Source of the DNA: a virus
Taxonomy: Duplodnaviria > Caudoviricetes
Virus record (IMG/VR): IMGVR_UViG_3300011116_001229
DNA length: 64,000 nt
Direction: 5' to 3' (one strand)
Under the pieces are notes generated by a model, which searched no databases, had not been told where the DNA came from, and saw only the letters and a list, made by a program, of their open reading frames with translations. Position numbers and translations under genes: made by a program. Shown piece by piece: positions 41,076 through 64,000 of this stretch (positions are counted from its first letter, which is position 1; every line of letters starts with the position of its first letter).

Positions 41076-44000
41076 ATGGTAAAATTAGCTCATACTGCAG
41101 ATATTCACTGGCGGGGTTTAAGTCGTCACGATGAGTACCGTGAAGTTTTTACGGCATTTGTTGAAGACTGTAAGAAGAACAAGGTTGACCACATCTTCGT
41201 CGGTGGTGACATCTTCCACACGAAGACGACCGGCATCTCCCCAGAGTACATTGACCAACTTACGTGGTGGCTTGAGTCTATGGCTAAGGTCGCGCCGGTC
41301 CACTTAACGCTTGGCAATCATGACGGCAATTTAACCAATCTTTCTAGACAAGATGCTGTATCTCCTATAGTTCAAGCAATTAACAATCCTCGCATCCATC
41401 TTTATAAGAAGAGCGGCATATATGAGTTCGAGCCAGGATTTAATTTGTGTGTCTACAGCCTTTTTGATGAAGAGGGTTGGGATAATGTCAAACCAGAACC
41501 GGGCAAAATCAATCTTGCCTGCTATCACGGACCGGTTCAAGGCTCCGTCACAGAGTCAGGTTGGGAAATAGATGAGTCACAAATTAAAGTTGACTTCTTT
41601 AAAGACTATCCGTTTGTTCTTTTAGGAGATATTCATCAGCTTCAGTATCTTGGCTATAGGGATGATCAAGAGGGAAATAAGAAACCGTGGATAGCATACC
41701 CAGGTACACCATTGCAGCAGAATTATGCTGAAGAATTAGATCATGGTTATCTAGTCTGGAATATTGAAAGCATCTCTAAATGGAACGTCAGCTTTAGAAA
41801 GCTGCCTAATCCCAAGCCCTTTGTCACTCTCAACTGGACCGGTTCTCAGAAAGATTTTCTAAAAGAAGCTCAGAACTATCCAAAGCAGTCAAGATTCAGA
41901 ATTAAGTCTTCTAATGCTTTGAGTCAAGATGACGTTAGCTTCTTTAGTGACACTTTAAAGAGTCAATATGATGCTACTGAGGTAACGTTTAAGTCTGAGT
42001 ACAAAGCTGAGAGTGAAACTATCAAAGCTGGAAGCGCAACTATTGCTAAGTCAGACTTATCATCTCCTGAAGTGATTCTCTCTTTAATTCAAACTTACGC
42101 TAAAGAAAATGGCGTCACAGACTATAATTGCGACACACTGACAAGCCAAGTTAAAAAATATTTGTCAATTGTCTCGTCGTCAGATGACTTATCGAGAGGA
42201 TCAAAGTGGACCCTCAAACACATGAAGTGGCACAATACATTTGCGTACGGCGAAGACAATGAGATTGACTTTTCAAAACTGAATGGAATTATTGGCGTAT
42301 TTGGTGCCAATAGAATTGGTAAGTCTTCTATCGTTGGCACTTTAATGTATAACTTGTTCAACACGACTGACCGAGGATCAATAAAAAATTTACACGTTTG
42401 TAATATTAGAAAGCCCTACTGTTACGCAAGATCAATCTTTGAGCACAACGGAAATGTTTATGTTGCAGAGCGCCAGACTAGTAAGTCTGTCAATAAAAAA
42501 GGAATCACAAGCGCTACAACATCATTAAATTTCTTCAAAATGCAAGATGATGGTGAGCTTGAAGACTTATGTGGTGATCTTCGAACTGATACAGAAAAAG
42601 TTATTAGATCATTAATTGGTACACATGAAGACTTTTCAATTACGTCTCTGTCTGCGCAAGGTGATATCAATGCGTTTATCTCACAGGGTTCTACTAAAAG
42701 AAGATCATTTCTATCAAGATTTTTAGGACTTGATGTTTTTGATAAGATGGCTGACTTAGCAAATAAAGACTTAAATGGCTTTAAGGCACAGTTAAAGAAT
42801 TTCCCAGATAGAAATTGGGATGAGCTTAAAAAACAGTGTAGTGATGCTGTCAGTGAAATTAAGCATCAACTAGATGAGCTTGAGGTTTTAAACGCTCACA
42901 GGCAATCAGAAATTTCTGATTTAAAAGCGGATCTTTCTACACACAAAGATGTCAAAGTAGTTACCCAAACAGACGTTCTCAATCAAGAGAAGCGAGTGTC
43001 TACCTTGCTAAAATCGTGCGACGATTGCACTTCAAAAATTGACAATTTGACGTCCGAAATCCAGATATTAAAGTCTAAACTAGAAGTTGTTGAACAAGTT
43101 GAGAACTCTGACGACGTAGAAGATCTCAAGCAACAGCTAACTAATATTTGTGAACTTGAAAGATCACTGTCAGATCTAAAGCATCTGCATGATAAAGAAA
43201 CAACTCAGCTCAAGCAATATCAAAAGTCTCTTAAAATTCTTGATGAAGTTCCGTGCGGAGACGAGTATCCTACCTGCAAGTTTATTAAGGATGCTCACCA
43301 AAGCAAAGAAAAGCTTAGTGATCAAGTTCACAAATCAGACGATGCTTTAAAAAGAATGAATGAGATTAGTGTTAAGCTATCTGCCATGAATAAGGAAAAT
43401 CTCGTGTCTAGGCTAGATAAGCTGGAGAAAGCTATCACATTATCTGCTAAATTTAAGTTAGAAATTTCTAAGAAAGAAACAGAAATAGCTGCTAGCAGAG
43501 CTTCCTGCGACTCTATTGCAGATACTTTACGAGACGCCGAGCAGAAATTAAAAGACTTACAGACTGCTCTTAAAAATGAAGAAAACACTGAGGTTGTTTC
43601 TATTAGGTCAAAAATCGAAGTTTTAACAAAACAAATTAAGGAGTCTGATGAGCTTAGACTAAGCTTGGCTACACAGAGAGGGAAGCTCCTGTCTGATATT
43701 GATAAGCTTAACAATGAAAAATTTTCTAGAGATGCAATTTTAAAAGACATGAAGACGTACGAGATAATCTCTGGTGCATTTTCTAAGAAGGGTATACCGC
43801 TGATCATTACGCGTTCACAAATTCCTGCGATCAATGCAGAGATTGCAAAGATTCTTCATGGAATAGTTGATTTTGAAGTTGAACTAGAGAATGATGATGA
43901 TTCTGATGCCTCAGAGATCTATATTAATTATGGGGACTCACGAAGAATTATTGAGCTCTGCAGCGGCATGGAAAAGACTATCGCGTCTATTGCTTTAAGA

Positions 44001-44234
44001 GTTGCGCTTGTTAACGTTTCTTCTATGTCGAAATGTGACATGTTTATCATAGATGAAGGATTTGGCACTCTAGACGACGCTGGAGTCGAGGCATGCAATA
44101 GATTGCTGACAAGCCTAAAAAAGTACTTTAGACTTGTTCTTGTCATAACGCACGTTGATGGAATTAAGGATGTTGCCGACCACATCTTAGAAATAACAAA
44201 AAATGAAAAAGACTCGAGGGTTGTCTACGCATGA
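41076..44234 (+). CDS. Fused Mre11/SbcD (gp47) - Rad50/SbcC (gp46) nuclease-ATPase
   Basis: ADIH, GGDIFH, GNHD, GDIH phosphoesterase motifs, then GANRIGKS, coiled coil, CSGME, IIDEGFGTLD, ITH in one frame. Confidence 0.92.
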   Translation: MVKLAHTADIHWRGLSRHDEYREVFTAFVEDCKKNKVDHIFVGGDIFHTKTTGISPEYIDQLTWWLESMAKVAPVHLTLGNHDGNLTNLSRQDAVSPIVQAINNPRIHLYKKSGIYEFEPGFNLCVYSLFDEEGWDNVKPEPGKINLACYHGPVQGSVTESGWEIDESQIKVDFFKDYPFVLLGDIHQLQYLGYRDDQEGNKKPWIAYPGTPLQQNYAEELDHGYLVWNIESISKWNVSFRKLPNPKPFVTLNWTGSQKDFLKEAQNYPKQSRFRIKSSNALSQDDVSFFSDTLKSQYDATEVTFKSEYKAESETIKAGSATIAKSDLSSPEVILSLIQTYAKENGVTDYNCDTLTSQVKKYLSIVSSSDDLSRGSKWTLKHMKWHNTFAYGEDNEIDFSKLNGIIGVFGANRIGKSSIVGTLMYNLFNTTDRGSIKNLHVCNIRKPYCYARSIFEHNGNVYVAERQTSKSVNKKGITSATTSLNFFKMQDDGELEDLCGDLRTDTEKVIRSLIGTHEDFSITSLSAQGDINAFISQGSTKRRSFLSRFLGLDVFDKMADLANKDLNGFKAQLKNFPDRNWDELKKQCSDAVSEIKHQLDELEVLNAHRQSEISDLKADLSTHKDVKVVTQTDVLNQEKRVSTLLKSCDDCTSKIDNLTSEIQILKSKLEVVEQVENSDDVEDLKQQLTNICELERSLSDLKHLHDKETTQLKQYQKSLKILDEVPCGDEYPTCKFIKDAHQSKEKLSDQVHKSDDALKRMNEISVKLSAMNKENLVSRLDKLEKAITLSAKFKLEISKKETEIAASRASCDSIADTLRDAEQKLKDLQTALKNEENTEVVSIRSKIEVLTKQIKESDELRLSLATQRGKLLSDIDKLNNEKFSRDAILKDMKTYEIISGAFSKKGIPLIITRSQIPAINAEIAKILHGIVDFEVELENDDDSDASEIYINYGDSRRIIELCSGMEKTIASIALRVALVNVSSMSKCDMFIIDEGFGTLDDAGVEACNRLLTSLKKYFRLVLVITHVDGIKDVADHILEITKNEKDSRVVYA

Positions 44235-46874: not shown

Positions 46875-46949
46875 TATTGAATTATTGACAGAAACAGTTT
46901 AATATATCCCGCAAGGTGAAACGCCGACTTCGTATTGAGGAGGCATAAT

Positions 46950-49900
46950 ATGGCAAAGAATCAACAAACACTTTTTCAAAAATTAACGAGGCTCTTTAAA
47001 AGCGGCCCAGTCGTCAAAAGAAAGATCCGAAGTTTAGATACTACCGTTGCTTTGCCAGATTCTGCTAAGAGCAGCGGCACTTTACTCTTTCAAAAGAGCG
47101 TAGCTCCTACATACACAACAATCACAGCTAACGCTTACAATCTCTCAGAGAGAATGATGAGGTATCAGGACTTCGTTGAAATGGAGTACTGTCTTCATGG
47201 AGATACTCTAATCGCAGTACCTGACGGTTATAAGAAAATTAAAGATCTTGCTGAAGAATGCTCTGCAGACCCAGACAAAACATTCCTAGTCTATTCTTAT
47301 GATCATAACTTAGGAAGAATTATTCCAGCTTGGGGTAAACAAGCTCGACAAACCCGAACCGATCACGCTTACATAGTTACTTTCGACAACGGGCAGAAGA
47401 TCATCGGAACTCCTAACCATCGACTCATGAAGCGCGATGGAACCTTCTGCAAGATTGAAGATCTTAAAGCCGGCGATGCAATGATGCCATTCTATCGTCG
47501 GGATCTTTTTAACGGCTGCAAAGAAGAAGGTGAAGGTTATCGTTGGATCTACACAATGGACCGACGGTCGAAGATGAATGGCTGGGCATCTGAGCATCGA
47601 GTCGTCGGAGAAATGATAAAAGGTTCTCCTTTGACAAACGACGAAGTCGTTCACCACAAAAATTTCATCAAATACGACAATAGACCTGAAAATCTCCTGG
47701 TGATGACAAGCGAAGCTCATCAAAAGCTTCATGCAGAGATTCTCAACGGTGCTAAATGGTCTGAACAAAATTCTGACTGGATTCAGCAGTTCAAGATCAA
47801 TCATTCTAAGTTCATGTCCGAGAACAATCCTGCCGAGCGGAAGGACATCACATTCGGTCGAATTTTAGAAGTTGCCGAAAGAACAAACTTCAATTCTCGA
47901 AAGATGTGCGAAGTTCTTGATACCGATCCCAATGTAATCAAACGTAAACTACGAAAACACGGATATCAAGACTTCCAAACATTCGCCAAAGCATACAACC
48001 CAGATTGGCACAACGCAGGATGGAGCAACCAAGGCGAGAATAATCCTCGATATAATCATTCAGTTACCTTTGACAGAATATGCTCAATTTTTTCTAAAGG
48101 CATGTCAAAGAAGGATCTAATTCAGTCTTTGGGCACGACAGATACAATTCTTTCTAAGCGACTTGCCGAACAAGGTTATAAAAACTACACTGAATTTTCT
48201 CATAACTACGAAAATCTTAAAGTTGCGTCTATCGACTATCATGGTGTGATCCCACTGTATGATCTAACTGTCGACGGCTATAAGAACTTCGCTACAGACA
48301 CAGTCATTTCTCACAACACACCTGAGATTGCGAGTGCGCTTGACATATACGCAGACGAGACTTGTGCACAAGATGAAAAGGGTAGAGTGCTACATGTCTA
48401 CTCTGACAACGAGAAAATTAAGGAAATATTAGAGGAGCTATTCTACGATATATTAAATGTTGAATTTAATCTAAGATCGTGGGTTAGAAACCTTGTTAAG
48501 TATGGTGATTTCTTCCTCTACTGTGACGTCTCGCCTGATCATGGTGTCATAAATGTCTTTCCAATTCCCGTCAATGAGATTATTAGGGAAGAAAATTACG
48601 ACCCAGACGATCCGATGGCTGTTCGTTATAAGTGGGTCACCATGGGTAATAAAACTCTCGAAAATTGGGAAGTCATTCATTTTAGGCTTCTCGGTAACGA
48701 TTCTTTCTTGCCGTACGGATCATCGATCATAGAAGCTGCTAGACGCATCTGGCGTCAACTCATTCTAATTGAAGACGCAATGCTGGTTTATCGCGTTGTC
48801 CGCGCTCCGGAACGCCGAGTTTTCTATATTGATGTTGCCAATATTCCTCCTGAAAACGTACCGATGTACGTCGAAGAGCAAAGAAAGAACTTGAGATCAA
48901 GTCAGGTAGTCGATAGGTCTACGGGCCGAGTTGATCTTCGTTATAATCCTCTATCTGTAGATGAAGATTATTTCATACCTGTCCGCGGCGGTGAGTCTGG
49001 TACTAAAATTGATACGTTAGCTGGTGGACAAAATGCTGCAGCAGTTGAGGATGTAGCCTATATTCAAAAGAAACTATTCTCTGCACTCAAGGTACCGAAA
49101 GCTTATCTTGGCTACGATGAGTCTTTAAGTTCAAAGGCTACTTTGGCTCAAGAAGACATACGTTTCTCTAGGACTATTGCCGTAATACAAAAGACTATTA
49201 TCGCTGAGCTAAACAAGCTCGCAATTATACATCTATATTCTCATGGATTTGATGATGAAGACTTACAAAACTTCGTTCTCCGTCTACCGAATCCTTCAAC
49301 TATAGCCCAGCAGCAAAAGCTTGAACTATGGAGAGCAAAATTTGAAATTGCAGGTTCAGCTCCTGAAGGTCAAATGAGCAAGGAATTTATTAGAAAAGAG
49401 ATCTGGGGTCTCAGTGAAGAAGAATGCCGCGATATTGACGATCAGCGTCTAAAAGAAAAACTGATAGATGGTGAGATTGAAAATGCTAAACCTGAAGAGG
49501 AAAGCGGAGACGAGGCCACAACTGGCGGCGGTGAAGGCGGAGGCGAAGCTGAAGCCGGAGGTGAAGAGGGCGGAGAAGAATCCGGAGGTGAAGAGGGCGG
49601 AGAAGAAGGAGATCTCTTTGCTGGAGATGATCCTGCTGACAACGAAGAGGTAGGAAATCTACTGCTTTCAGCCGACGATCCGGACGATGACGAAGAGTTT
49701 GGAATTAAATTCAAGCTAAAAGACGTCGACATGCCAGTTAAGGCACAGCGACAAATTGATAGAATACGTCATAACAGAGCACGAATAAGACATTCAGGAC
49801 CTTCAAAGCTGCACATGCCTGATTGGGCATCATCGCTTGATGCAAAAGATTTAGCTATGACCGACCCGTTTGATGGAAAATTCTTAAGATCCCTTGCATC

Positions 49901-50081
49901 TAATCCGTTAAAAGAAACTAAGACAAGAATTGGGTCAGATGTTATGTCTGCATTGAGAAAGATGGCTTCGCTACCGGCTTTTCAGTCTAGATCTATTAAT
50001 TCAAATAAACTTTTATCAGAAGATATGTCTATTGAAATAGAGGAGCAAGAATCTGATAAGACCGACGAGGAGATACTGTGA
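46950..50081 (+). CDS. Portal protein (T4 gp20-like) with intein and acidic C-terminal extension
   Basis: PEIASALDIYADE, RIWRQLILIEDAMLVYRVVRAPERRVFYIDV, EDYFIP; RBS GAGGAGG before ATG 46950. Confidence 0.95.
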   Translation: MAKNQQTLFQKLTRLFKSGPVVKRKIRSLDTTVALPDSAKSSGTLLFQKSVAPTYTTITANAYNLSERMMRYQDFVEMEYCLHGDTLIAVPDGYKKIKDLAEECSADPDKTFLVYSYDHNLGRIIPAWGKQARQTRTDHAYIVTFDNGQKIIGTPNHRLMKRDGTFCKIEDLKAGDAMMPFYRRDLFNGCKEEGEGYRWIYTMDRRSKMNGWASEHRVVGEMIKGSPLTNDEVVHHKNFIKYDNRPENLLVMTSEAHQKLHAEILNGAKWSEQNSDWIQQFKINHSKFMSENNPAERKDITFGRILEVAERTNFNSRKMCEVLDTDPNVIKRKLRKHGYQDFQTFAKAYNPDWHNAGWSNQGENNPRYNHSVTFDRICSIFSKGMSKKDLIQSLGTTDTILSKRLAEQGYKNYTEFSHNYENLKVASIDYHGVIPLYDLTVDGYKNFATDTVISHNTPEIASALDIYADETCAQDEKGRVLHVYSDNEKIKEILEELFYDILNVEFNLRSWVRNLVKYGDFFLYCDVSPDHGVINVFPIPVNEIIREENYDPDDPMAVRYKWVTMGNKTLENWEVIHFRLLGNDSFLPYGSSIIEAARRIWRQLILIEDAMLVYRVVRAPERRVFYIDVANIPPENVPMYVEEQRKNLRSSQVVDRSTGRVDLRYNPLSVDEDYFIPVRGGESGTKIDTLAGGQNAAAVEDVAYIQKKLFSALKVPKAYLGYDESLSSKATLAQEDIRFSRTIAVIQKTIIAELNKLAIIHLYSHGFDDEDLQNFVLRLPNPSTIAQQQKLELWRAKFEIAGSAPEGQMSKEFIRKEIWGLSEEECRDIDDQRLKEKLIDGEIENAKPEEESGDEATTGGGEGGGEAEAGGEEGGEESGGEEGGEEGDLFAGDDPADNEEVGNLLLSADDPDDDEEFGIKFKLKDVDMPVKAQRQIDRIRHNRARIRHSGPSKLHMPDWASSLDAKDLAMTDPFDGKFLRSLASNPLKETKTRIGSDVMSALRKMASLPAFQSRSINSNKLLSEDMSIEIEEQESDKTDEEIL
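47190..48317 (+). mobile_element. 376-aa intein with HNH endonuclease inside the portal gene
   Basis: Y|CLHGDT N-splice, block B TPNH, LYDLTVDGYKNF..SHN|T C-splice; EHR..VVHHKN..DNRPENL..H HNH. Confidence 0.93.
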
Positions 50082-53700: not shown

Positions 53701-55731
53701 ATGAGCAAGCAATTATATGAGGAGGCACTGGCAGATGTTAAGAAGCTAAAAGAAATAGCTGAAGACAATGCCAAGCGTGCAATTCTAGAGGCTGTTACGC
53801 CTAGAATAAAAGATCTCATTGAGAATCAACTTCTTGGTGAGGCGGATAAAAGCAACGATTCTGAAGAAGATGAGCTTTTATTAGACGACATGCCTGAGGT
53901 TGTACCAGCAGATGCAGACCCAATTGATGCAGCTATCTCTATGCCTGACGACGAGGGCAAGATTACTCTTGATTTAAGTATGCTTGCATCACCTGAAGAT
54001 GAAGATTACGCTTTGAGCATGGATGATGAGCAGGCAGTCGATGCTTTAGTTCCATCTAATAAAATCAATGTAGTTAAGGCTGAGTCTGCTTTAAGAAAAC
54101 TTGAGAACAAGATACACAATTTTTCAAAAGCAAGTGCTGTGCTACGTGAGACCAAGAGCTATTTGGTGGGTCTGGTGTCAACAATTTCTGAAGTTGAAGA
54201 TATGTATTCAACATTGAAGAATTCTTCAAACACGCAAAATTTGATTCAACGATTGAAGGAATGTCATAAAACGCTCAAAACGCTCATGGAGCAGGAAACG
54301 AACATGAAAAAGAAATTTTCACTCAATGAAGAAGACGTAACTCTTACCCTCAAGGGACTTCCGGACGATTTGAACCTCGATGATGTCGAGATTGAACTCG
54401 TGTCTGGCGGCGCCGAAGAAGAAGAAGGTGAAGAACCCGAAGAAGAAGGCGAAGAAGCTGAGGGTGAAGACGTTTTTGGCGATGAGGGCGAAGACGAAGA
54501 AGATACCGAAGAAACTGAAGAAGGAGAGGAAAGCTCCGAAGAAAAAGAGGAAGAAAAAATGGAAACACGATGGTTAAAGGGCGACGTTGTCGTCGAAATT
54601 GATGAGAACATGCTTCGTAAAGAGATTTCACGTATGAGAGCACTCCGTGAGGAGGCAGTTCCTTCAGCGGACGGCCACGGACCCGGAGACCTCGGTGACC
54701 TTGAGGATGAGGATCTTGGCGATCCTCTTGAGATGGACCTCTCTGAGGCCGATGGCGACCTCGACGAAGAGTACGACATGGACCAGGGAATGGACATGGA
54801 TGCCGATGTAGACATGGATGAAGCCGGCAAGAGCGATGAAGAAGGCGACCTCGACGAAGAGTACGACACGGACCAGGGAATGGACGTGGACATGGACGAA
54901 GCTGACAAGCAAGACAAGAAGGACAAGGAAGGTGACCTTGATCTTGACGAAGCTAGCGAAGAAAAAGACGAAGAAAAAGACGAGAAGAAGATGAAAGAAT
55001 CAATCAAGCGTCGTCTTGCTTCTGAGATTCGCATTCAGACCGAGGCCAAGAAGAAGGCAGGTCAAGCTGCTCAAGCTGTCAAGAAGCAACAGAAGGAAGC
55101 TCAGCAGAAGAAGAAGGACGCACAACAGAAGATGAAGGAAGCTCAGCAACAAGCTAAGCAGAAGAAGATGAAGGAAGCTCAGCAGAAGAAGAAGGATGCC
55201 GAGCAAAAGATGAAGGAAGCTCAGCAAAAGCAGAAGAAAGCTAAGCAGATGAAGGAAGCGTACGATTACTATGCTACCCAATTCAACGAGTCAGTCCTTC
55301 GCACAAGAAAATTACAGGGCATGCTCGCAGAAGCAACTGCTCGCAATGGATCCTCCAAGAATGGTGGAACCACACGGTTAGCGGAGAACACCGTCGAACT
55401 CCGTGATAAGTTGGCAGAAATGAATCTGTTCAACGCGAAGCTACTCTTCACAAACAAGCTGCTTCAGAATGAGTCGCTCACCAAGCGCCAAAAGGCCGAG
55501 GTGATTGAGCGTCTCGACGAGGCACAGAACGTTCGTGAGGCGAAGCTTGTCTATGAGAGCTTGGTGAAGGCCCTCCAAGGTGGATCTACAGGTCGCGCAA
55601 TGACCGAGTCAGCTTCACGCGGAGTCATTGGATCTTCATCACGTCCCGCGCGTCCCGCGGCGACAACAACTACACTCAACGAAGGCTTCGAAGCTGAGCG
55701 TTGGGCGAAGCTCGCGGGCATCATTAAGTGA
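53701..55731 (+). CDS. Prohead scaffold protein (gp22-like)
   Basis: Directly upstream of MCP; acidic and coiled-coil; C-terminal ERWAKLAGII; many L-x-E sites. Confidence 0.75.
   Translation: MSKQLYEEALADVKKLKEIAEDNAKRAILEAVTPRIKDLIENQLLGEADKSNDSEEDELLLDDMPEVVPADADPIDAAISMPDDEGKITLDLSMLASPEDEDYALSMDDEQAVDALVPSNKINVVKAESALRKLENKIHNFSKASAVLRETKSYLVGLVSTISEVEDMYSTLKNSSNTQNLIQRLKECHKTLKTLMEQETNMKKKFSLNEEDVTLTLKGLPDDLNLDDVEIELVSGGAEEEEGEEPEEEGEEAEGEDVFGDEGEDEEDTEETEEGEESSEEKEEEKMETRWLKGDVVVEIDENMLRKEISRMRALREEAVPSADGHGPGDLGDLEDEDLGDPLEMDLSEADGDLDEEYDMDQGMDMDADVDMDEAGKSDEEGDLDEEYDTDQGMDVDMDEADKQDKKDKEGDLDLDEASEEKDEEKDEKKMKESIKRRLASEIRIQTEAKKKAGQAAQAVKKQQKEAQQKKKDAQQKMKEAQQQAKQKKMKEAQQKKKDAEQKMKEAQQKQKKAKQMKEAYDYYATQFNESVLRTRKLQGMLAEATARNGSSKNGGTTRLAENTVELRDKLAEMNLFNAKLLFTNKLLQNESLTKRQKAEVIERLDEAQNVREAKLVYESLVKALQGGSTGRAMTESASRGVIGSSSRPARPAATTTTLNEGFEAERWAKLAGIIK
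54754..54890 (+). repeat. 47-nt coding direct repeat, 2 copies, 90-nt period
   Basis: ggcgacctcgacgaagagtacgaca(t/c)ggaccagggaatggac(a/g)tgga at 54754 and 54844. Confidence 0.9.
55081..55260 (+). repeat. Coding tandem repeats (K-M-K-E-A-Q-Q-K)
   Basis: aaggaagctcagca four times plus degenerate copies. Confidence 0.85.
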
Positions 55732-55784
55732 TGTGAACTTTTAACAACAAACCAACTTTAGATTTTTTTAGGAGTCAATTTAAA

Positions 55785-57641
55785 ATGAAGTATTTTAGCT
55801 TAGATCAACTTGCACAGGGTATCCGCGAGAAGCACGTCGGTGCTGAGCGTGCCCGTTTAACAGAGAAGTGGAGCCGCACAGGTCTCCTCCGCGGTCTCGA
55901 CGGCACACGCCGCGAGATGATGGCACAGCTTCTCGAGAACCAGGCTGCACAGGTCCTCAAGGAGAGCTCAGCTCTCTCAACCGGTGGCGGCAACGTTGCA
56001 ACCAGCGGACAGATTCAGGGCTTCAGCAACATCGCATTCCCAATCGTCCGCCGCGTGTTCGGTGGCCTTGTCGCCAACGAGCTCGTTTCAATCCAACCGA
56101 TGAGCCTTCCATCAGGACTCATCTTCTACCTTGATTATACCTACGGTACAACCAAGGGTGGAGCAAACGCCGGCGACGCAACATACACATCAGGTCAATC
56201 TATCTACAACAACCCACGCGGCAAGGGCGTCCAATCAGGATCTCTCGCAGCTGGCGGTATGTACGACCTCGTCGGCACCGGCTACTCCCGCACCTCTGGC
56301 TCGTTCACAGGCGAGAACCTCGCGGCGCTCGGTGCTTTCGGTGGCGCCAATGGCGACACATTCGCTGCAAGCTTGATGATCACATCTGACAGCCAGCTCA
56401 GCGGTTCAAACGCTCGCTTCACTGACTTCGACCCACAGGTCCAAGCAGCAGTGCAGAACAACGACCTCGACCTCACTTTCGCAGTCATGGCCATCACAGG
56501 CTCCGGCTTCGACAAGATGGACAAGCTCGCCGTCGAGCACCTCGCAGTCTTCGGTACAGTGACCAACGCCACAGCATGGGGCGAGACTTACCAAGGTGGC
56601 AGCGGCGTCCTCAACCTCCGCCGCCTCAACAAGCGCGGTAACTGGACAGGCTCCGTCTTCACAGCTGATGCACTCAACGGAACACACGTTCTCATGGTGC
56701 TCAAGGGTGCAAACGGCAACGCTCTCTCAGCAGTTGGCAGCTCACTCCGCGGTTCATTCGTGACTGCAGCCGGCCTCTCGGTCGACAGCACAGTGGGTTC
56801 AACCGTCACAGTGCCTTCCTTCGAGTCCGACTTCGGAACAAACCCGGCCCCGGCAATCCCAGAGATCGACATCCGCATCGAGTCGATCGCTGTGACAGCT
56901 GAGACCCGCAAGCTCCGTGCTCGCTGGTCACCGGAACTCGCGCAAGACCTCAACGCCTATCACTCGATGGACGCAGAGGTTGAGCTCACCTCGATCCTCT
57001 CCGAGCAGATCGCTCTCGAGATCGACCGCGAGATCCTCAACGACCTCGTCACAGCAGCCAACGGCGCCAACTACTACTGGAGCCGCTCACCCGGTCGCTT
57101 CGTCAACAAGACCACAGGCGTTCGCGAGACACTCGCTGACGCATTCCAAATCGGACCGGCCTTCACAGGCACAGTCCGCGAGTGGTACGAGACCCTCGTC
57201 GAGACGATCATCGACGTTGCCAACACCATCCACCGCAAGACACTCCGTGGAAGCGCAAACTTCCTCGTCTGCGGACCGGACGTCGCCACCATCCTCGAGA
57301 GCTCGGTCCTCTACAAGCCCAAGCTTTCCATCGACGGTGAGGGACAAGTTGGAGCTCCGTTCTCCATCGGTGCAGAGAACATCGGTTCCGTGAGCAACCG
57401 CTTCACAGTCTACAAGGATCCTTACTTCGTTAGAAACAAGATCCTCGTCGGCTACAAGGGCGGCAGCTACCTCGAGACCGGCTACGTCTACGCTCCCTAC
57501 GTGCCACTCATCGTGACACCCACCATCTTCGCGCCAGAAGATTTCACGCCACGCAAAGGCGTAATGACTCGCTACGGCAAGAAGATGGTCCGCAGCGATT
57601 TCTTCGGAACTGTCACATGCTTGGACATGAACGTGATATGA
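55785..57641 (+). CDS. Major capsid protein (T4 gp23-like)
   Basis: LLENQ, FPIVRRVF..ANELVSIQPM..PSGLIFYLDY, RKLRARWSPELAQDL, EIDREI, YAPYVPL, KGVMTRY. Confidence 0.96.
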   Translation: MKYFSLDQLAQGIREKHVGAERARLTEKWSRTGLLRGLDGTRREMMAQLLENQAAQVLKESSALSTGGGNVATSGQIQGFSNIAFPIVRRVFGGLVANELVSIQPMSLPSGLIFYLDYTYGTTKGGANAGDATYTSGQSIYNNPRGKGVQSGSLAAGGMYDLVGTGYSRTSGSFTGENLAALGAFGGANGDTFAASLMITSDSQLSGSNARFTDFDPQVQAAVQNNDLDLTFAVMAITGSGFDKMDKLAVEHLAVFGTVTNATAWGETYQGGSGVLNLRRLNKRGNWTGSVFTADALNGTHVLMVLKGANGNALSAVGSSLRGSFVTAAGLSVDSTVGSTVTVPSFESDFGTNPAPAIPEIDIRIESIAVTAETRKLRARWSPELAQDLNAYHSMDAEVELTSILSEQIALEIDREILNDLVTAANGANYYWSRSPGRFVNKTTGVRETLADAFQIGPAFTGTVREWYETLVETIIDVANTIHRKTLRGSANFLVCGPDVATILESSVLYKPKLSIDGEGQVGAPFSIGAENIGSVSNRFTVYKDPYFVRNKILVGYKGGSYLETGYVYAPYVPLIVTPTIFAPEDFTPRKGVMTRYGKKMVRSDFFGTVTCLDMNVI

Positions 57642-57679
57642 CATGAATATCATCTGAATTCATATCCTAAGATCTGCAG

Positions 57680-57709
57680 AGGCCACCCAAAAGGTGGCCT
57701 TTGTAGTTT
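57680..57709 (+). terminator. Intrinsic terminator after MCP
   Basis: AGGCCACC-caaaa-GGTGGCCT perfect 8-bp stem followed by a T-rich tract. Confidence 0.8.
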
Positions 57710-57743
57710 ATAAACATTCAGTTGATGTATATATAATAGTTAT

Positions 57744-58571
57744 ATGTTAACTGAAATTGACAATGTCTGTAAAGAGTGTAATACTGAATTCGATTCATTA
57801 GAGTTCGTCTTAAGACACATTCGATGTCACAAGATCAACGCGCAAGAATACGTGCTCAAGTGGAAATACGGTGGACAAGCTCCACACTGTGCTTGTGGAT
57901 GTGGTTCCAAAAATAAGTGGAATATTGCCTTAAAGGATTTTACCCGATTTATTCACGGACATCACGCACATGGCAGAATCAAATCTGAAGAAGAGAAGGC
58001 GAAGATCGGGAGGAAGAACTCTGTAAACATGAAAGAATTCATGTCAAAACACCCAGATGTAGCAAAAAAGAGAATAAAAAAGATGAATCCTCTTTCAAAA
58101 ACTCCTGAGGCAATAAAGAAACAGACAGAGTCTATTCGTCGCTTCTGGGCTGAGTCGCCCCTCGCACCCGTCCTCCGGCAAGAAGCCTCCGCTCGTGCCG
58201 TGCAGCTCTTGGCTGACAACAAGATCGGACCGCACGCTCCCTTCAAGCGTGAGACCCTGATCAGCCCGTGGACCGGCGAGGAGGAGCACATGCACTCGTC
58301 TTGGGAGTCAGCGTTCTACCAGGCCTGCGTGTCTCGCCAGTACCACGTCACCAAGAACCACGGCATCCAGATTCCCTATACCCACCCCGACGGCACCACT
58401 CGGACTTACATTCCTGATTTCTACGGATTTGACGACCGCACCCTGTACGAGGTGAAGGGTCGCCACGACGCCGTGGACCAGGCCAAGTGGGACGCCGCGA
58501 AGGCTTTCTGTGAGAAGCGCAATTGGTGGTTCGTGGTGATGCTCGCCCCGGAGGATGCAGAGCTGTCTTGA
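57744..58571 (+). mobile_element. Free-standing putative homing endonuclease (Zn finger + NUMOD3-like + PD-(D/E)XK)
   Basis: CKEC..H..H, CACGCG, HGHH...KSEEEKAKIG, HSSWE, YIPDF, YEVKG; inserted right after MCP. Confidence 0.75.
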
Positions 58572-58725
58572 ATCAGCGCGTCCCTTGTGTTTTACGAAAT
58601 TCGTTGATCGTCTATAATATTTGCTCATTTTTGACTACGAACTTCATATTTAAATTCGCGTCGGAGCGCTGATCAGCAAAACAAACCGGCGCAAGAACAT
58701 TCACAGAAATTATTAGGAGCTCAAA

Positions 58726-59157
58726 ATGGCCAAGATTACAATCACAGATACACAAGGTCTCAATCAAATCAAGTCTGGAGACGGCGTCGTTCTCCAGCAC
58801 ACACCCACAGTCTCTGCTGCTGTGGCACTCGTCACCACAAACACAGCATCGCTTCCCGGTGCGTACACCATCGCAGGTGGAAGCGCAGCCGAAGTGAAGA
58901 TGCCCACAGCCTCAGAATCACTCGGTGGCGTCTTCGTCTTCAGAAGCACATCAGCACAAGCCCACTTTCTCACAGGCTCTGCCGAAGCTGCGGGAACCAA
59001 GGTCTTCGTGCTCGGCGATCCCACAGCCGGCAACGTAAAAAATGGTAGTAAGCTCACACTGCAAGGTGTCGTCGGCGCATCAGTCGCTCTCATCTCTGAC
59101 GGCGTGAACTTTATCGTTCTTCCAGGATCCGGTTCAGTTGCTTTCAGCGGCACCTGA
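58726..59157 (+). CDS. Putative capsid decoration/head-fibre protein
   Basis: Small Ala/Gly/Thr/Val-rich beta protein near MCP, same C-ending codon bias, RBS AGGAG. Confidence 0.5.
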   Translation: MAKITITDTQGLNQIKSGDGVVLQHTPTVSAAVALVTTNTASLPGAYTIAGGSAAEVKMPTASESLGGVFVFRSTSAQAHFLTGSAEAAGTKVFVLGDPTAGNVKNGSKLTLQGVVGASVALISDGVNFIVLPGSGSVAFSGT

Positions 59158-59181
59158 TTCTAGAAACTGCCAATAAACAGC

Positions 59182-59217
59182 AAAGAGGTTCTCAGCGATG
59201 GGAACCTTTTTCTTTTT
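59182..59217 (+). terminator. Intrinsic terminator
   Basis: aaagaggttctca-GCGA-tgggaaccttttt hairpin followed by a T-run. Confidence 0.8.
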
Positions 59218-59237
59218 GCTCCCATAGTTATTCAGTC

Positions 59238-60284
59238 ATGCCCACCCGTCGATTTAGTGCCTTAAGACCCAATGAGATGCGGGACGTCCTCGATGCTTTC
59301 TTGGGTTCACCCTCCCGGTCTCAGTTCACAGAGAAACTAGCCGGTCAGAATATGGCGCTCACTGTGCTACCCGGTGGTGAGGTGGAGTACGCGGGCAAGG
59401 GCGGCAAGACCACTATCGGTGGCGGCCTCTTTCCTCAGGTGACGCGTGCTCTACGTGATAATCATCCAGCGGTATCGAAACCGGTTTCTTACAGCTTCGA
59501 GGTCTTAAAGAAGACCGGCCGGTCTGACTTCATTGATTATCCCATAGACAAAGACTTTGCGGTGGTCGAACTAACGGGTCAATTAGATCAAGCTACAGCT
59601 GATCAACTGAACAGCGGGCAAGGTGCAGTTGCCTTTCTACCCAAAGAAGCGATCAAGAAGTCAGCTGCTGCTTACGTCAAAGAACCCGGAGACAAAGAAG
59701 CACTGCTTAAATTTAGGGATGAGCTCGCGTCAGGCAGGAAGCCTAGCAAAGAGAGGGCTGCTGAGATAGAGAGGCTCTTGATGTCAGTCGTGGACAGCGG
59801 CGGCGTGCCTTCAACCTTGGGTAGCGAACGGATCGAGGGTCTGTTTGGTCAGCTTGACGGTGGTACTTTTAAGATCCCATCTAAACAGTACGACGAACTG
59901 CAGAAAGATCAGTCAAGATTTGTGGCGATCGTTCGACGAGTACCCATGAAAGACATCGAGTCGCGCTTCCAGAATGCCGCTGATGATCCCGCTGCGGATC
60001 GCTTTGTCTCAGACGTCCTAGATTACGTCGACAAAATGGCCTCGGCAAAACTACCGAAGGGTTTTAGGACATTTTTCTCACCCACGGAGATGACAGGATT
60101 GAGCGGTCTAGCAGCAGCCTATCGCTCCGGTGACGCTGAGGCAGGGACGCAACTCGTCAAGCAATTCTTCAAGAGAGTCAACACAAAATCTGATTGGGTG
60201 TCTTCAGGAGTCCAAGAAGCTGCGATCATAAATGATCTAAGAAAATTGGTGAGAGAGCACCTCAAATCTCTAAGAAAACATTGA
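59238..60284 (+). CDS. Hypothetical protein
   Basis: 348-aa ORF; C-terminal DLRKLVREHL resembles the LKQIIKEE motif. Confidence 0.6.
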   Translation: MPTRRFSALRPNEMRDVLDAFLGSPSRSQFTEKLAGQNMALTVLPGGEVEYAGKGGKTTIGGGLFPQVTRALRDNHPAVSKPVSYSFEVLKKTGRSDFIDYPIDKDFAVVELTGQLDQATADQLNSGQGAVAFLPKEAIKKSAAAYVKEPGDKEALLKFRDELASGRKPSKERAAEIERLLMSVVDSGGVPSTLGSERIEGLFGQLDGGTFKIPSKQYDELQKDQSRFVAIVRRVPMKDIESRFQNAADDPAADRFVSDVLDYVDKMASAKLPKGFRTFFSPTEMTGLSGLAAAYRSGDAEAGTQLVKQFFKRVNTKSDWVSSGVQEAAIINDLRKLVREHLKSLRKH

Positions 60285-60351
60285 GTTAAATCGCGTTGTA
60301 ATTTTTTTAAACTTTAAGTTACTATATGCTGCATAGATATAATAAGGCTAT

Positions 60352-61839
60352 ATGGTAACGACAAAAAGCAGATTAACCAAGAGGTGCGCACTCGTCGTCG
60401 CCTCAGTGTTGTTCGCGTCCTACGGATGCGAGAGACCGAACCCTTATAAGCTTGCAGGCGACACTTCTGCAGTGTTTGAAGATTGTCCAACGCCCACTGT
60501 GAAGACGACTTCGTCCACCTCGTCAAGTGTTTCGTCTGCGGTTGCTACATCAACGGGAACCGGCGGTCAAGAGGTAAGCTCGGCCGCCACTGTGGGTCCA
60601 TCCGTGACGTCTACGGGGTCAGGTAATAATGAACCAAAAATTGAGCTGACAGAGCTTGACGAGAGAGAGCTAGATTATTCTGAAGCTCTTAGAACAGCTA
60701 GCATGCTCATCATTGGAGAACTACCCACTCTGACAGAGGTCTACGAGCTGGGCGATCTACCACCTGATCAGCAGAAGGTGAAGTACGAAGATCTAATCGA
60801 TAAGAAGTTATCAGATCCTCGATTTGCCGCGACCCTGGTGGAGTTCTTCAAGTACACGTTCAAGATGGGTGGAGCGTCTACTGTTGCAGGTGAACCGAAT
60901 CGTGACACGGCACCGACTTTTGCTGCGAAGGTGGTCTATGAAGAAAAAGATTGGCGCAACATTCTCGTTCAGCAAGCTAATACATGTCCTACTTTTAATC
61001 CTGCAAGTAACTCCTTTACTGATGGTAGCTGCAACAATCTTCCCGCGGGGATAAACCATTCAGGCATCCTCACCAACCCAGGCGTGCAGAGCCTGTACTT
61101 CGGTAACCTCTCTTTCCGCCGAAACCGATTCTTTCACGAGACGTTTCTCTGTCGCTCTGGTAACGAGCAAGCCGGCGGCGAACCAACAGATCAACCGCCT
61201 TCAGATGCACCATGCAGCGGTGTCAATCCGATTCCCGGTTACCAGAATAAATGGCCTGTCAATGAGATTGCGGGAACTTGCAATGGAGGACGTGTAGACT
61301 TTCATGCTTACAACAGCAGCAACGTGTGTGCCAACTGTCACGCCACGTGGAACCACCGCTCACCCCTCTTCAGCCAGTTCGACTCAAACGGCGTGTTTCA
61401 ACCCCTCACCGCGTCAGGTGAGTACTCAGTCTTTGTCCCTGTGACCGGTTCACCGCGCGCCAAGTTGAGCGATTGGTTGTGCGTCGGTCCAACCTGTCCA
61501 AATGGAGGCAGCAATTCAACAGCTTGGAAAAAGATTATGAAAGTCGACGGTGTTGAAGTTGCTGCATCTGCTTCCACGATCAACGAACTTGGACAGCAGA
61601 TGTCCAAGGATGACGAAGTGATCGAATGTGCTGTGAAGCGAACTTGGAATTATGCTATGGGTAGAGCAGACATCACAGAAATCGGTGGACGCTCTTGGGT
61701 AAGCTTACCGGATCGCAAAGACAAGAACCCAGAATTAGTCACCATGTCCAAGTTAGTTTCTCAGTTTAAGTCTAACGGATTCAACTTGAAGAAAGTTTTT
61801 AGGACAATTTTAACGTCAGATGATTTCACGAGGTTTTAA
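60352..61839 (+). CDS. Lipoprotein of DUF1549/DUF1588/DUF1585 type with a CxxCH motif
   Basis: Lipobox-like FASYG|C, S/T/G linker, ALRTASMLIIGELPT, GILT, CANCH, CAVKRTWNYAMGR...FNLKKVFRTILTSDDF. Confidence 0.75.
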   Translation: MVTTKSRLTKRCALVVASVLFASYGCERPNPYKLAGDTSAVFEDCPTPTVKTTSSTSSSVSSAVATSTGTGGQEVSSAATVGPSVTSTGSGNNEPKIELTELDERELDYSEALRTASMLIIGELPTLTEVYELGDLPPDQQKVKYEDLIDKKLSDPRFAATLVEFFKYTFKMGGASTVAGEPNRDTAPTFAAKVVYEEKDWRNILVQQANTCPTFNPASNSFTDGSCNNLPAGINHSGILTNPGVQSLYFGNLSFRRNRFFHETFLCRSGNEQAGGEPTDQPPSDAPCSGVNPIPGYQNKWPVNEIAGTCNGGRVDFHAYNSSNVCANCHATWNHRSPLFSQFDSNGVFQPLTASGEYSVFVPVTGSPRAKLSDWLCVGPTCPNGGSNSTAWKKIMKVDGVEVAASASTINELGQQMSKDDEVIECAVKRTWNYAMGRADITEIGGRSWVSLPDRKDKNPELVTMSKLVSQFKSNGFNLKKVFRTILTSDDFTRF

Positions 61840-61840
61840 A

Positions 61841-62857
61841 ATGAAGAGAAAGTTCCTTCCGGGCATTGTTTTCTTAACTGCGTACGTATTCTCTTCAGCA
61901 TGTGGGTCAACAGCACCTGACATTGGTGAGAATTACTGCCCTGACGAAGAGATAGTCGTGACAGACTCTGTCACAGTTTCAGCTGTTTCTTCAACTTCAT
62001 CAACTGTTGCAACATCGGGTGCCGGAGGTGCGCCCGTAGATCAACCCGCTGCAACTTCTTCTGGGTCTGGCATGGAAGATCTTCCTCAGTATAATACACC
62101 AAATTTAGATGAGATAGTATCACGTTTGCACGGTTGCCATAAGCTTACCTACACCCAGATTGGTAATCTGCTAAGAGCGAGAGGTGTTGCAATTCCACCC
62201 GGCAATGTCTCCGACGTCAGAACTACGCAGGCGTCAATATTTGGAGTGACACAAACCCTTGGTTCAATTTTTGGCGGAAGCGGCTCAGCCTGCGAGATGG
62301 CAATCACCGACGCAAATGGCACAAATGATCCCATCTGTCCTTCAAATGAGTCTTGCTTCTGTAATCAAGATGACAAGATGAACCAGGTCAACAGAGGCTG
62401 TTTAGACGTCGGTAACAATTCTCCCGATGCTGCCGATGGATACTGTGTATCAAAGCCCTTTACAGCTGGTTTCTTGTATTTCACAGGCAAAGATGCCCTT
62501 GGTGTTCCGAAGCTTGATTCACGCCTTGGAGAAAAAGAAGAGCATACTACAGCCTCTGCTATGAAGTTAATGGACATATTTATTCAGGCTGCGCCACAGA
62601 TCATCGCAAATATTGGCGATTCTTCCAAAGCTCCGGCCTGCACCTTAAATGGTAAAAATATGCCGATGTTCGCTAATGACGGAAGCTGTGTTGAAGAGTC
62701 TGTGAGCTGTTTAATAGGCATGCCAGCCACAGACGATCACATGCTGTTGTGCAATCTTTTGATTCAAAAGGCAAAACAGGGTGACTCGTCAGATCTCATG
62801 AAGAAGAAGATAATTGCTGTCTCCGTTCTTCTCAGTGCTACTCATTCTTGTCAATAA
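61841..62857 (+). CDS. Cys-rich lipoprotein
   Basis: MKRK..FSSA|CGS lipobox, S/T linker, multiple Cys. Confidence 0.65.
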   Translation: MKRKFLPGIVFLTAYVFSSACGSTAPDIGENYCPDEEIVVTDSVTVSAVSSTSSTVATSGAGGAPVDQPAATSSGSGMEDLPQYNTPNLDEIVSRLHGCHKLTYTQIGNLLRARGVAIPPGNVSDVRTTQASIFGVTQTLGSIFGGSGSACEMAITDANGTNDPICPSNESCFCNQDDKMNQVNRGCLDVGNNSPDAADGYCVSKPFTAGFLYFTGKDALGVPKLDSRLGEKEEHTTASAMKLMDIFIQAAPQIIANIGDSSKAPACTLNGKNMPMFANDGSCVEESVSCLIGMPATDDHMLLCNLLIQKAKQGDSSDLMKKKIIAVSVLLSATHSCQ

Positions 62858-62874
62858 ACTAAAGGGTATCTAGA

Positions 62875-64000
62875 ATGGCTAATTGGAAACTCAAAGAACT
62901 TAGAGATGAAAGACGTCGAACGTTTCTTAAGATGTGCACAGTTGCAGCAGCTGCTGTAGGCATTGAGAGAAGCAAGTTACTAAATTTTCTTGCTGACGAG
63001 GGCGGATATGGTCTGGCCGAGGCGGCAGGTTCTACATACGGTCGTTCTTTATTAGTGCCGGCCCCAAACGGTTCACAAGCCTGGTTTCAAGAACTGTGGC
63101 CTGTCGCTGATGTCGGTTTCAAAGCATGCCAAAATGCCAATGTTCCTGGGCTATCTTCCAACTTTGGTGGATTCTCTTCCTATCTTTACACGTCTCAGTA
63201 CGGTTATAATCCTGCTAATGGATATCGAGGAACTTATGTGTGGGGTAAAGGTAATCCAATGCCTTCGCTTCCAATGGGCGTAAAAGGATGGGCAGGAGGA
63301 GATAGATCTTTCTTTTACGGTCCTGATGCGCCTTGGTTTGATCATGCTTTAGGCGTTCCGAAATACCCAGTGTCAGCTTTTATGTCTGGCAAAGATGAGA
63401 CGCACACCGAGTTTCCTATCTCGCAGGTTACCCTATCTGGAAATGCTTCAATGCAGGCAGCATTAGCATCACTTGGCGCAGCAGGGTCATCAGCAATAGT
63501 ACCAGTTCTTGGTATTGATCCTGTCAAATATGGAAGAGCACCCGGTGCACCAGAAGTTGCTACAGTTCCATCATCTGCGGGCATGATCGACCTCTTTAAT
63601 AGCTCAGCCAGCCAATTCACGCTAGCAAGCAAAATTGATCAAGATCTTTTTGAAGTCTACTATAAGGCCTTAGCAGGTTTAAGAAAATCTTCTGGCAGAT
63701 CTTCCTGGATTCCTCAGATGCAGATCACCAAGAATGCTGCAAGGATTATCGGTCTTAATTTTGCATCCCAGCTGACACCAACCAGTCAAGATCTTGCTGA
63801 TTTTGGAATTCAAGAGATGATCGATGGACTTAATGCTTCTTCTATGTACATGTCAGCTGCTCAGAGGAGAGGAATCGAAGAGTTTGGAAGAACTCTGATC
63901 GTGGTTGCTAAAGCATTCGCGCTCGGTCTATCCAAGACGGCAATTGTAGCTCTCTCACCCGGTCCGACTAGTGACACGACGTTTACGGATCCTCACGTTA
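62875..64000 (+). CDS. Tat-signal protein (DUF1501/DUF1552-like position), truncated by window edge
   Basis: Not in ORF track; MANWKLKELRDERRRTFLKMCTVAAAAVG..., frame read as open to the window end. Confidence 0.75.
   Translation, partial: MANWKLKELRDERRRTFLKMCTVAAAAVGIERSKLLNFLADEGGYGLAEAAGSTYGRSLLVPAPNGSQAWFQELWPVADVGFKACQNANVPGLSSNFGGFSSYLYTSQYGYNPANGYRGTYVWGKGNPMPSLPMGVKGWAGGDRSFFYGPDAPWFDHALGVPKYPVSAFMSGKDETHTEFPISQVTLSGNASMQAALASLGAAGSSAIVPVLGIDPVKYGRAPGAPEVATVPSSAGMIDLFNSSASQFTLASKIDQDLFEVYYKALAGLRKSSGRSSWIPQMQITKNAARIIGLNFASQLTPTSQDLADFGIQEMIDGLNASSMYMSAAQRRGIEEFGRTLIVVAKAFALGLSKTAIVALSPGPTSDTTFTDPHV

Follow-up and report, generated by a model that had tools for sequence, protein, structure and literature searches.

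The record IMGVR_UViG_3300011116_001229 comes from a tailed virus (Duplodnaviria; Caudoviricetes), and the 64,000 nucleotides of it analyzed here, hereafter called the window, end in the three-gene cassette that is the subject of this study. Three co-oriented, tightly packed open reading frames (ORFs) fill the last 3.6 kb of the window in the ORF list, in agreement with an initial annotation, made from the letters alone, that had described closely spaced genes on one strand (60352-61839, 61841-62857 and 62875 onward). We named these genes g1, g2 and g3; they are given below with two landmarks.

60352..61839, plus strand: g1, an ORF predicted to encode a 495-residue lipoprotein of divergent PSCyt/PSD type.
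61841..62857, plus strand: g2, found both as ORF and as gene call, encoding a predicted 338-residue lipoprotein; the alternative start at 61820 would give 345 residues.
62875..64000, plus strand: g3, encoding a Tat-signal protein, of which the window holds the first 375 of 533 codons; 477 more bases lie beyond its end.
60300..60351, plus strand: promoter-like stretch before g1, a run of T followed by a TATAAT-like box.
55785..57641, plus strand: gp23, encoding the T4-type major capsid protein (PF07068, 2.1e-77), the landmark upstream of the insertion region.

The alternative start of g2 overlaps the end of g1. Both g1 and g2 are predicted to encode lipoproteins, as the initial annotation had proposed on the basis of two lipoboxes followed by linkers rich in Ser, Thr and Gly; lipoboxes were called by reading the sequence by eye against the usual pattern. 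The signal peptide of g1 ends in ASYG, followed by a lipobox cysteine (Cys26) and a Ser/Thr/Gly linker of about 70 residues. Residues 1-96 are disordered in the structural model (predicted local distance difference test score, pLDDT, below 50), ahead of a globular domain spanning approximately residues 97-495, and the overall pLDDT is 74.9. A search with g1 returned 515 relatives. The CANCH motif noted at the outset is a genuine CxxCH element (C326-A-N-C329-H330) followed by NHR, and C26, C326, C329, H330, N334, H335 and R336 are invariant in 32 homologs.

In Planctomycetota, Verrucomicrobiota and Myxococcota, genes of the PSCyt2/PSCyt3-PSD type occur in pairs with DUF1501 or DUF1552 genes (He et al. 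2017, PMC5615132; PF07583, PF07627, PF07624, PF07394, PF07586). Three of these models match g1 in the expected order, each below its Pfam cut-off: PSCyt2/DUF1549 (PF07583) at residues 106-169 with 18.5 bits against a cut-off of 29.8 (E = 2e-3), PSCyt3/DUF1588 (PF07627) at residues 313-350 with 14.7 bits against 27 (E = 0.04), and PSD2/DUF1585 (PF07624) at residues 408-438 with 25.1 bits against a gathering cut-off of 25.8 (E = 1.5e-5). The DUF1585-like C-terminus of the initial annotation thus stands as a match just under threshold, located ahead of the extreme C-terminus. Many close relatives of g1 carry a precomputed PF07624 label, so that membership of g1 in PF07624 is best described as borderline. 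The PF07583 label occurs on bacterial relatives at 38-45% identity. Comparison of the g1 model with the predicted structures of the Atlas returned clusters of DUF1549/DUF1553 and PSCyt1-PSCyt2-PSD1 proteins as the nearest named ones (template modelling (TM) score of 0.48-0.50, normalized by query), and Foldseek found no meaningful match among solved structures. Together, these observations suggest that g1 is a sub-threshold relative of known families, a divergent PSCyt/PSD-type exported protein with a heme-attachment motif.

The signal peptide of g2 ends in FSSA, followed by Cys21, which is at least 90% conserved among relatives. Beyond the lipobox, a Ser/Thr/Gly linker resembling that of g1 leads to an insert rich in Cys and a conserved core. 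Models from Pfam, NCBIfam and PHROG all failed to match g2, and an Atlas feature search returned only unnamed clusters from Myxococcota and viruses. All 137 relatives of g2 are encoded beside relatives of g1. Six cysteines and several histidines are invariant among them (H97, C99, C267, C283, C290, C304, H335 and C337), some within an R-L-H-x-C-x-K motif and a C-terminal A-H-S-C-(E/Q) motif. This conserved set suggests a metal or disulfide site.

The full length of g3 (533 residues) was read from an independent contig (L001:5483-7084). The protein begins with DERRRTFLKM and passes the NCBIfam Tat-signal model TIGR01409 (18.6 bits against a cut-off of 16.7), in keeping with the RRTFLK signal initially reported; the twin arginines are kept in 46-53 of 62 relatives, nine of which match PF10518. 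Searched exhaustively with HMMER, 1.8 billion cluster representatives yielded only 217 relatives of g3. No Pfam domain was detected in g3 at E-values up to 1, nor in any of 62 family members at E-values up to 0.01, PF07394 and PF07586 included. The structural model (pLDDT of 82.8) was more informative: when compared with 48,161 solved chains using an exhaustive aligner, the best 50 all belonged to the alkaline phosphatase superfamily (Z of 7.8-11.5, root-mean-square deviation of 4.1-5.5 Å over 216-271 residues) and included sulfatases, NPPs, PafA, phosphoglycerate mutase, MCR-1/EptA and LtaS, at sequence identities of 4-12%. Foldseek had given a weak (E > 0.05) but coherent list of enzymes from the same superfamily, which the exhaustive aligner supersedes. 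Among Atlas predicted structures, g3 resembles DUF1501 (TM 0.56/0.67) and DUF1552 (TM 0.48/0.56). The core of g3 is therefore predicted to adopt the alpha/beta fold of the alkaline phosphatase superfamily, with DUF1501 and DUF1552 as its nearest families.

Profile comparisons using hhalign were suggestive only, both with partial-DUF1501 proteins of Minicystis rosea (probability of 89%, E = 2.3e-6, 112 columns) and with seven DUF1552 proteins of the same species (co-linear over 342 columns, probability of 45%, E = 2.3e-4); the probability was 2% for two full DUF1501 proteins of M. rosea. The HxxSHH motif of DUF1552 has no equivalent in g3, which reads D-P-H where the template consensus reads H..sH. 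Invariant residues in the g3 family are D372-P373-H374, G427-D428 and D441, and H177 is near-invariant within T-H-T. By sequence placement, the D-x-H and G-D-T motifs would stand where superfamily enzymes hold their metal ligands, and T176, H177 and T178 are candidates for the nucleophile. A complex prediction for the g1 and g3 cores scored 0.00 and, being without controls, weighs neither way. The kind of cassette that had initially been announced (PSCyt/PSD with DUF1501/1552) is upheld, although formal Pfam membership does not follow since no model was passed. Because every curated Pfam cut-off failed and an extra middle gene is present, we filed the cassette as a probable divergent sister subfamily specific to Polyangiaceae, plus phages.

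The cassette is located inside the structural block of a T4-like phage. Upstream in the window are an ORF resembling Mre11/Rad50, the large terminase, a gp20 portal gene with an intein, the prohead protease gp21, a scaffold-like acidic protein and gp23. When searched as an exact protein, g1 turned up on four independent Logan contigs. The longest of these (L001, 19.7 kb) shows, downstream of the cassette, several small ORFs and then an endolysin of M15 type, T4 gp13, a protein resembling gp15 and the tail sheath. Having capsid-side genes upstream and neck and sheath genes downstream, the cassette therefore lies within this block. One protein of the window is also recorded on a contig of 204,815 bp, and we take the phage to be of about 205 kb. 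Searching IMG/VR by exact words taken from the end of the window returned nothing. Contig integrity near position 60300 was examined with independent contigs: Logan contigs from three studies bridge this position, covering 59065-61830 without a mismatch, 59796-62723, and 57435-64000 within a contig of 20.6 kb. With these bridging contigs, and with neck and sheath genes of T4 type downstream of the cassette, the contig is free of a chimeric junction at this point. Near-identical DNA was present in 20 runs from seven studies of lake, river, estuary and viral-fraction samples, none of which is listed as an RNA run.

Upstream of g1, the TATAAT-like box ATATAATA occupies positions 60337-60344, 7 nt before the ATG, and no clear Shine-Dalgarno sequence is present. 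The same arrangement, a T-run and a TATAAT-like box 5-9 nt before the ATG and no Shine-Dalgarno sequence, is kept before g1 in 17 related phage copies. Within the window, neither ATATAATA nor the T4 late-promoter motif TATAAATA is enriched, and a generic promoter and terminator scan returned counts at chance level.

The guanine-plus-cytosine content (GC) of the cassette is 46-50%, against approximately 37% in the first 54 kb, an elevation that had initially been read as partial amelioration of DNA from a GC-rich donor. This reading does not hold. The GC-rich island begins at 53.7 kb (53701-64000), 6.6 kb before the cassette, within the scaffold and capsid genes, and is not specific to the cassette. 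It peaks in gp23 (58% GC, with a GC of 0.70 at third codon positions, GC3); the GC3 of neighboring genes is 0.38-0.60, and that of genes in the first 53 kb is 0.22-0.42. For the cassette itself, GC3 is 0.38-0.51 in the window, 0.77-0.95 in bacteria and only 0.19-0.32 in some sister phages. As third positions are phage-like in these sister phages, the capture must be old and the raised GC in the window is not a trace of the donor, but a local feature shared with the capsid gene. The gp23 gene is also GC-rich in relatives, with a GC3 of 0.64 in L163 (overall GC of 42%), and relatives found via gp23 range from 34 to 66% GC. Such an island might arise if the most highly expressed gene had adapted its codons to a host of high GC, or through recombination with GC-rich relatives.

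The initial annotation had called for a survey of related phages, and about 30 related phage contigs proved to carry the cassette. The closest relatives of g1 (65-86% identity) are encoded on large AT-rich contigs of 187-273 kb, in the order portal, protease, gp23, cassette, endolysin and gp13. The genes g1, g2 and g3 follow gp23 in L005 (273 kb), L007 (187 kb) and 29 IMG/VR loci, and g3 lies two genes downstream of g1 in every complete phage locus as well as in nearly all complete bacterial loci. A less biased picture of presence and absence was obtained by starting a survey from gp23 instead of from the cassette. Six records carry the same cassette among those relatives for which 6 kb or more was read beyond gp23; it is absent from about 17 relatives that were read for the full 10 kb, and g3 is found nowhere in a complete relative of 297,894 bp with terminal repeats. 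The cassette is thus an accessory module. A third version of g1, a fragment 43% identical, was seen at the end of L086. Neither g1 nor g3 occurs in any PHROG family or in any of 50,697 deposited phage records, and we found no phage example of such a cassette in the literature searched, which agrees with the earlier statement that no described example was known.

About 30 diverged phage copies have g1, g2 and g3 intact, and the family-invariant residues of the three are all kept in the phage copies. Ratios of nonsynonymous to synonymous substitution rates (dN/dS) in the main phage clade are 0.08 for g1, 0.13 for g2 and 0.06 for g3, with synonymous sites near saturation. The three genes are under purifying selection in phages.

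We then turned to cellular genomes, one per prokaryote species. All 42 cellular loci belong to Polyangiaceae, Polyangia or Myxococcota (Minicystis rosea, Byssovorax, Polyangium and metagenome-assembled genomes, MAGs), which vindicates the description of the cassette as myxobacteria-type. The g1-g2-g3 order is kept in nearly all 42, several genomes carry two or three paralogous sets, and single Polyangiaceae genomes also harbor further DUF1501 and DUF1552 genes. The closest cellular copies (65-71% identity for g1, 53-60% for g2 and 69-76% for g3) are located on contigs of 63-67% GC from lake MAGs (Lake Tanganyika and Lake Zurich), and one lake-MAG contig with the cassette, L010, comes from the same Lake Tanganyika sample (3300020578) as the phage contig L067. 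Wherever flanks were read, the context is chromosomal and ordinary, without signs of a prophage: ClpB adjoins the cassette in four of four such loci (the Tanganyika contig and three more distant relatives), and GlmS lies nearby in three of the four. In Minicystis-type paralogous loci, a gene of 428-440 residues directly precedes g1 (L009:8736-10022 and L180:6682-8004), the L009 copy of which has two C-x-x-C-H-like motifs; the phage versions are without it. The 348-residue gene upstream of the cassette in the window (59238-60284) was considered as a further member and rejected, being unrelated to the CxxCH gene that precedes the Minicystis cassette and outside the conserved set.

In the g3 tree, 24 phage copies form one clade (support of 92) that is sister to three lake-MAG copies (joint support of 99) and nested among Polyangiaceae. 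This topology fits a single transfer from a lake Polyangiaceae lineage to the ancestor of the main phage group. A different history is suggested by L163, a 200-kb contig whose gp23 is 75% identical. Its cassette (L163:13729-17499) is a compact version of 388, 241 and 459 residues with an identity of only 32-38%; a 133-residue ORF with hydrophobic stretches, as judged by eye, comes before it, and the genes after it are unrelated. This version groups with Polyangium and Byssovorax paralogs in the g1 tree as well as in the g3 tree, and for the g3 tree the approximately unbiased (AU) test rejects a single phage clade (p = 1.5e-5). Because the L163 version groups with a different Polyangiaceae paralog and the AU test rejects a single clade, the whole cassette was captured by phages on at least two occasions. 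The gene trees also make a planktonic Polyangiaceae-type myxobacterium the likely host.

On these grounds, and with somewhat more confidence than doubt, we consider the cassette to be an accessory module that a T4-like jumbo phage of lakes derived from its host and whose products are exported to the host envelope, with periplasmic ester scavenging as our best guess for its role. An ancestor of the phage group took over an entire operon of three genes from a planktonic myxobacterium of Polyangiaceae type. The captured operon landed in the variable stretch that separates gp23 from the neck gene gp13, where purifying selection has kept all three genes since. During infection, g1 and g2 are predicted to leave the cytoplasm via the Sec pathway and to be lipid-anchored at their conserved cysteine, and g1 would probably gain a c-type heme at its CxxCH motif from the maturation system of the host. 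The product of g3 would be folded in the cytoplasm, probably with metal, and then exported by the Tat pathway. Once in the periplasm, the three products would act jointly, as the host's own paralogous sets do: g3 may act on a phosphate or sulfate ester, and g1 and g2 may serve as anchoring, substrate-binding or redox partners. Activity, substrate, heme binding and expression are put forward here as a proposal drawn from sequence features.

Our best guess for the role is more precisely the scavenging of esterified nutrients in the periplasm, above all phosphorus. We favor it because single genomes hold many paralogs, because g3 has the fold of phospho- and sulfo-esterases, and because a phage of about 205 kb has a large demand for DNA synthesis in nutrient-poor lakes and also carries phoH. 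It is further favored because counterparts in the Planctomycetes-Verrucomicrobia-Chlamydiae (PVC) group associate with sulfatases and carbohydrate-binding modules, PSCyt/DUF1501 pairs of Verrucomicrobia being abundant, located near sulfatases and sometimes fused to carbohydrate-binding modules (PMC5615132). Capture of a second version by a related phage, independently, is the reason why we think that the cassette probably benefits the phage.

Several observations weigh against this interpretation. A partner with a heme motif is unexpected for a simple phosphatase, and the cassette is placed in the late, structural block. Most enzymes of the alkaline phosphatase superfamily have an Asp metal ligand after strand 1. 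No conserved Asp follows strand 1 of g3, where the consensus reads G-N-G-G, and g3 may therefore not be a classical hydrolase. With respect to the host, the phage has a GC of approximately 37%, against 63-67% in the proposed hosts, and the assignment is made from gene phylogeny and co-occurrence only. A BLAST comparison of positions 1-60000 of the window with five Polyangia genomes gave no spacer-like match, returning only a 105-nt match of 73% in the PhoH gene and low-complexity matches. A search for PhoH homologs was also tried as a clue to the host and was uninformative, the protein being too conserved.

The main rival is that g1-g3 remodel the envelope or exclude superinfecting phages, by modifying or masking a component of the surface or the periplasm, in the manner of the phosphoethanolamine and phosphoglycerol transferases EptA/MCR-1 and LtaS, and thereby keep other phages or released progeny from binding or injecting. 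The roles suggested in the initial annotation (surface remodeling, a block to superinfection, social behavior) are regarded here as guesses. Exported lipoproteins are indeed known as exclusion factors in other phages, such as Llp of T5 and Cor of lambdoid phages; the solved transferases MCR-1, EptA, EptC, LtaS, BcsG and GacH, whose targets are lipids and glycans of the envelope, are among the fold matches of g3 (Z of 8.8-9.7); and the cassette is accessory and adjoins virion and lysis genes. However, the presumed host already has two or three paralogous cassettes, one of them 65-76% identical, so that a phage copy would add little new chemistry, g3 is soluble and Tat-exported without the membrane domain of EptA- and LtaS-type transferases, and no similarity to a known exclusion protein or PHROG family was found. 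We regard this explanation as unlikely, while ranking it ahead of those that follow.

A second possibility is that the operon is passenger DNA, brought into a variable region by illegitimate recombination and of no benefit to the phage. The region after gp23 is in fact variable: its content differs among relatives, and a homing-type endonuclease is missing in some natural variants. The gene directly after gp23 in the window (57744-58571) encodes a free-standing TnsA-like endonuclease (PF08722, 2.4e-10) and looks like a mobile homing-type insert; one estuary contig joins position 57641 to 58140, omitting 498 bases in the region of this gene, and L163 has a different ORF of 477 residues in its place. 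Nevertheless, passenger DNA would hardly keep three genes intact in about 30 diverged copies at near-saturated synonymous divergence (dS) and dN/dS of 0.06-0.13, nor does it account for third positions fully recoded to phage composition in some lineages or for the independent capture of the whole set a second time. Selection and double capture largely refute this reading, which we hold to be very improbable. Still less probable is that the three products are decoration or assembly factors of the virion instead of exported proteins, as their placement inside the structural block might suggest: lipoprotein and Tat signals are conserved in phage copies, cellular orthologs occupy ordinary chromosomal, non-prophage contexts, and a complete close relative does without g3. 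An assembly chimera or bacterial contamination joined near 60300, for which the GC above that of the first 54 kb and the binning of some relatives as 'Proteobacteria' or 'Deltaproteobacteria' MAGs could be invoked, can be dismissed almost entirely given that the junction recurs in four Logan assemblies and in contigs of three further studies with neck and sheath genes after the cassette, that phage contigs of 187-273 kb share the layout, and that the GC rise begins 6.6 kb earlier.

Other features of the window and its relatives were noted in passing. The gp20 portal gene (46935-50081) contains an intein with an HNH endonuclease (PF14890, PF13392 and PF07230); the intein is also found in the relative L005, and the portal of L007 (648 residues) is without it. 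A single ORF of 1052 residues (41076-44234) fuses a Mre11-like phosphoesterase domain to a Rad50/SbcC-like ATPase, the T4 counterparts of which are two genes, gp47 and gp46. Positions 22284-23657 encode a fusion of PIN and PhoH (PF13638 and PF02562). In L007, a 732-residue protein with a faint bactofilin match is encoded between the endolysin and gp13 (L007:17757-19955) and is absent from the lineage of the window.

To return to the host-derived accessory module, two captures and sustained selection indicate that the three genes function together and repay the phage within a single infection cycle. The gene trees provide a concrete host hypothesis for a widespread group of lake jumbo phages, and the compact three-gene version offers a small, portable target for studying the family. 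A broader claim, which we advance tentatively and hold less firmly than the reading above, is that abundant uncultured lake jumbo phages infect planktonic Polyangiaceae-type myxobacteria and have taken over a periplasmic heme-lipoprotein and alkaline-phosphatase-fold system at least twice, which would constitute a new class of auxiliary module reprogramming the periplasm through nutrient-ester scavenging or redox-linked ester chemistry. If true, this would open the large and enigmatic PSCyt/PSD-DUF1501/DUF1552 systems to experiment for the first time.

Llp of T5 and Cor of lambdoid phages are phage lipoproteins that block superinfection; like them, g1 and g2 are phage-encoded lipoproteins predicted to be destined for the host envelope. 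Unlike them, g1 and g2 are large (338-495 residues), share an operon with a protein that resembles an enzyme, have orthologs on the chromosome of the presumed host, and show no similarity in sequence or family to these factors. With sulfatases, NPP phosphodiesterases, PafA, EptA/MCR-1 and LtaS, g3 shares a predicted core fold and the D-x-H and G-D-T motifs, while differing from enzymes of the alkaline phosphatase superfamily by its Tat export and the lack of an Asp after strand 1. The cassette also resembles the PSCyt/PSD-DUF1501/1552 pairs, in which a CxxCH exported protein is likewise encoded near a Tat-signal protein of alkaline phosphatase fold and many paralogs occur per genome. The cassette departs from these pairs in that g1 is a compact lipoprotein without PSCyt1 or PSD1 that passes no Pfam model, g2 is always inserted between g1 and g3, and the subfamily is confined to Polyangiaceae/Polyangia and phages. 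The chemistry of the wider PSCyt/DUF1501 families is explicitly stated to be unknown (PMC5615132).

A further parallel is found among phages, in host-derived genes that are accessory, under selection and nested in the phylogeny of the host. T4-like cyanophages carry host-derived nutrient-acquisition genes such as pstS and phoA, and in both cases the carriers are T4-like phages of nutrient-poor waters. The analogy would extend to nutrient capture in the periplasm, and the cassette differs from pstS and phoA in being a whole three-gene operon, in coming from myxobacteria, and in having been taken twice. Nested phylogeny, purifying selection and patchy presence, all of which we found, argue for classing the cassette among phage auxiliary genes, that is, host-derived accessory genes.

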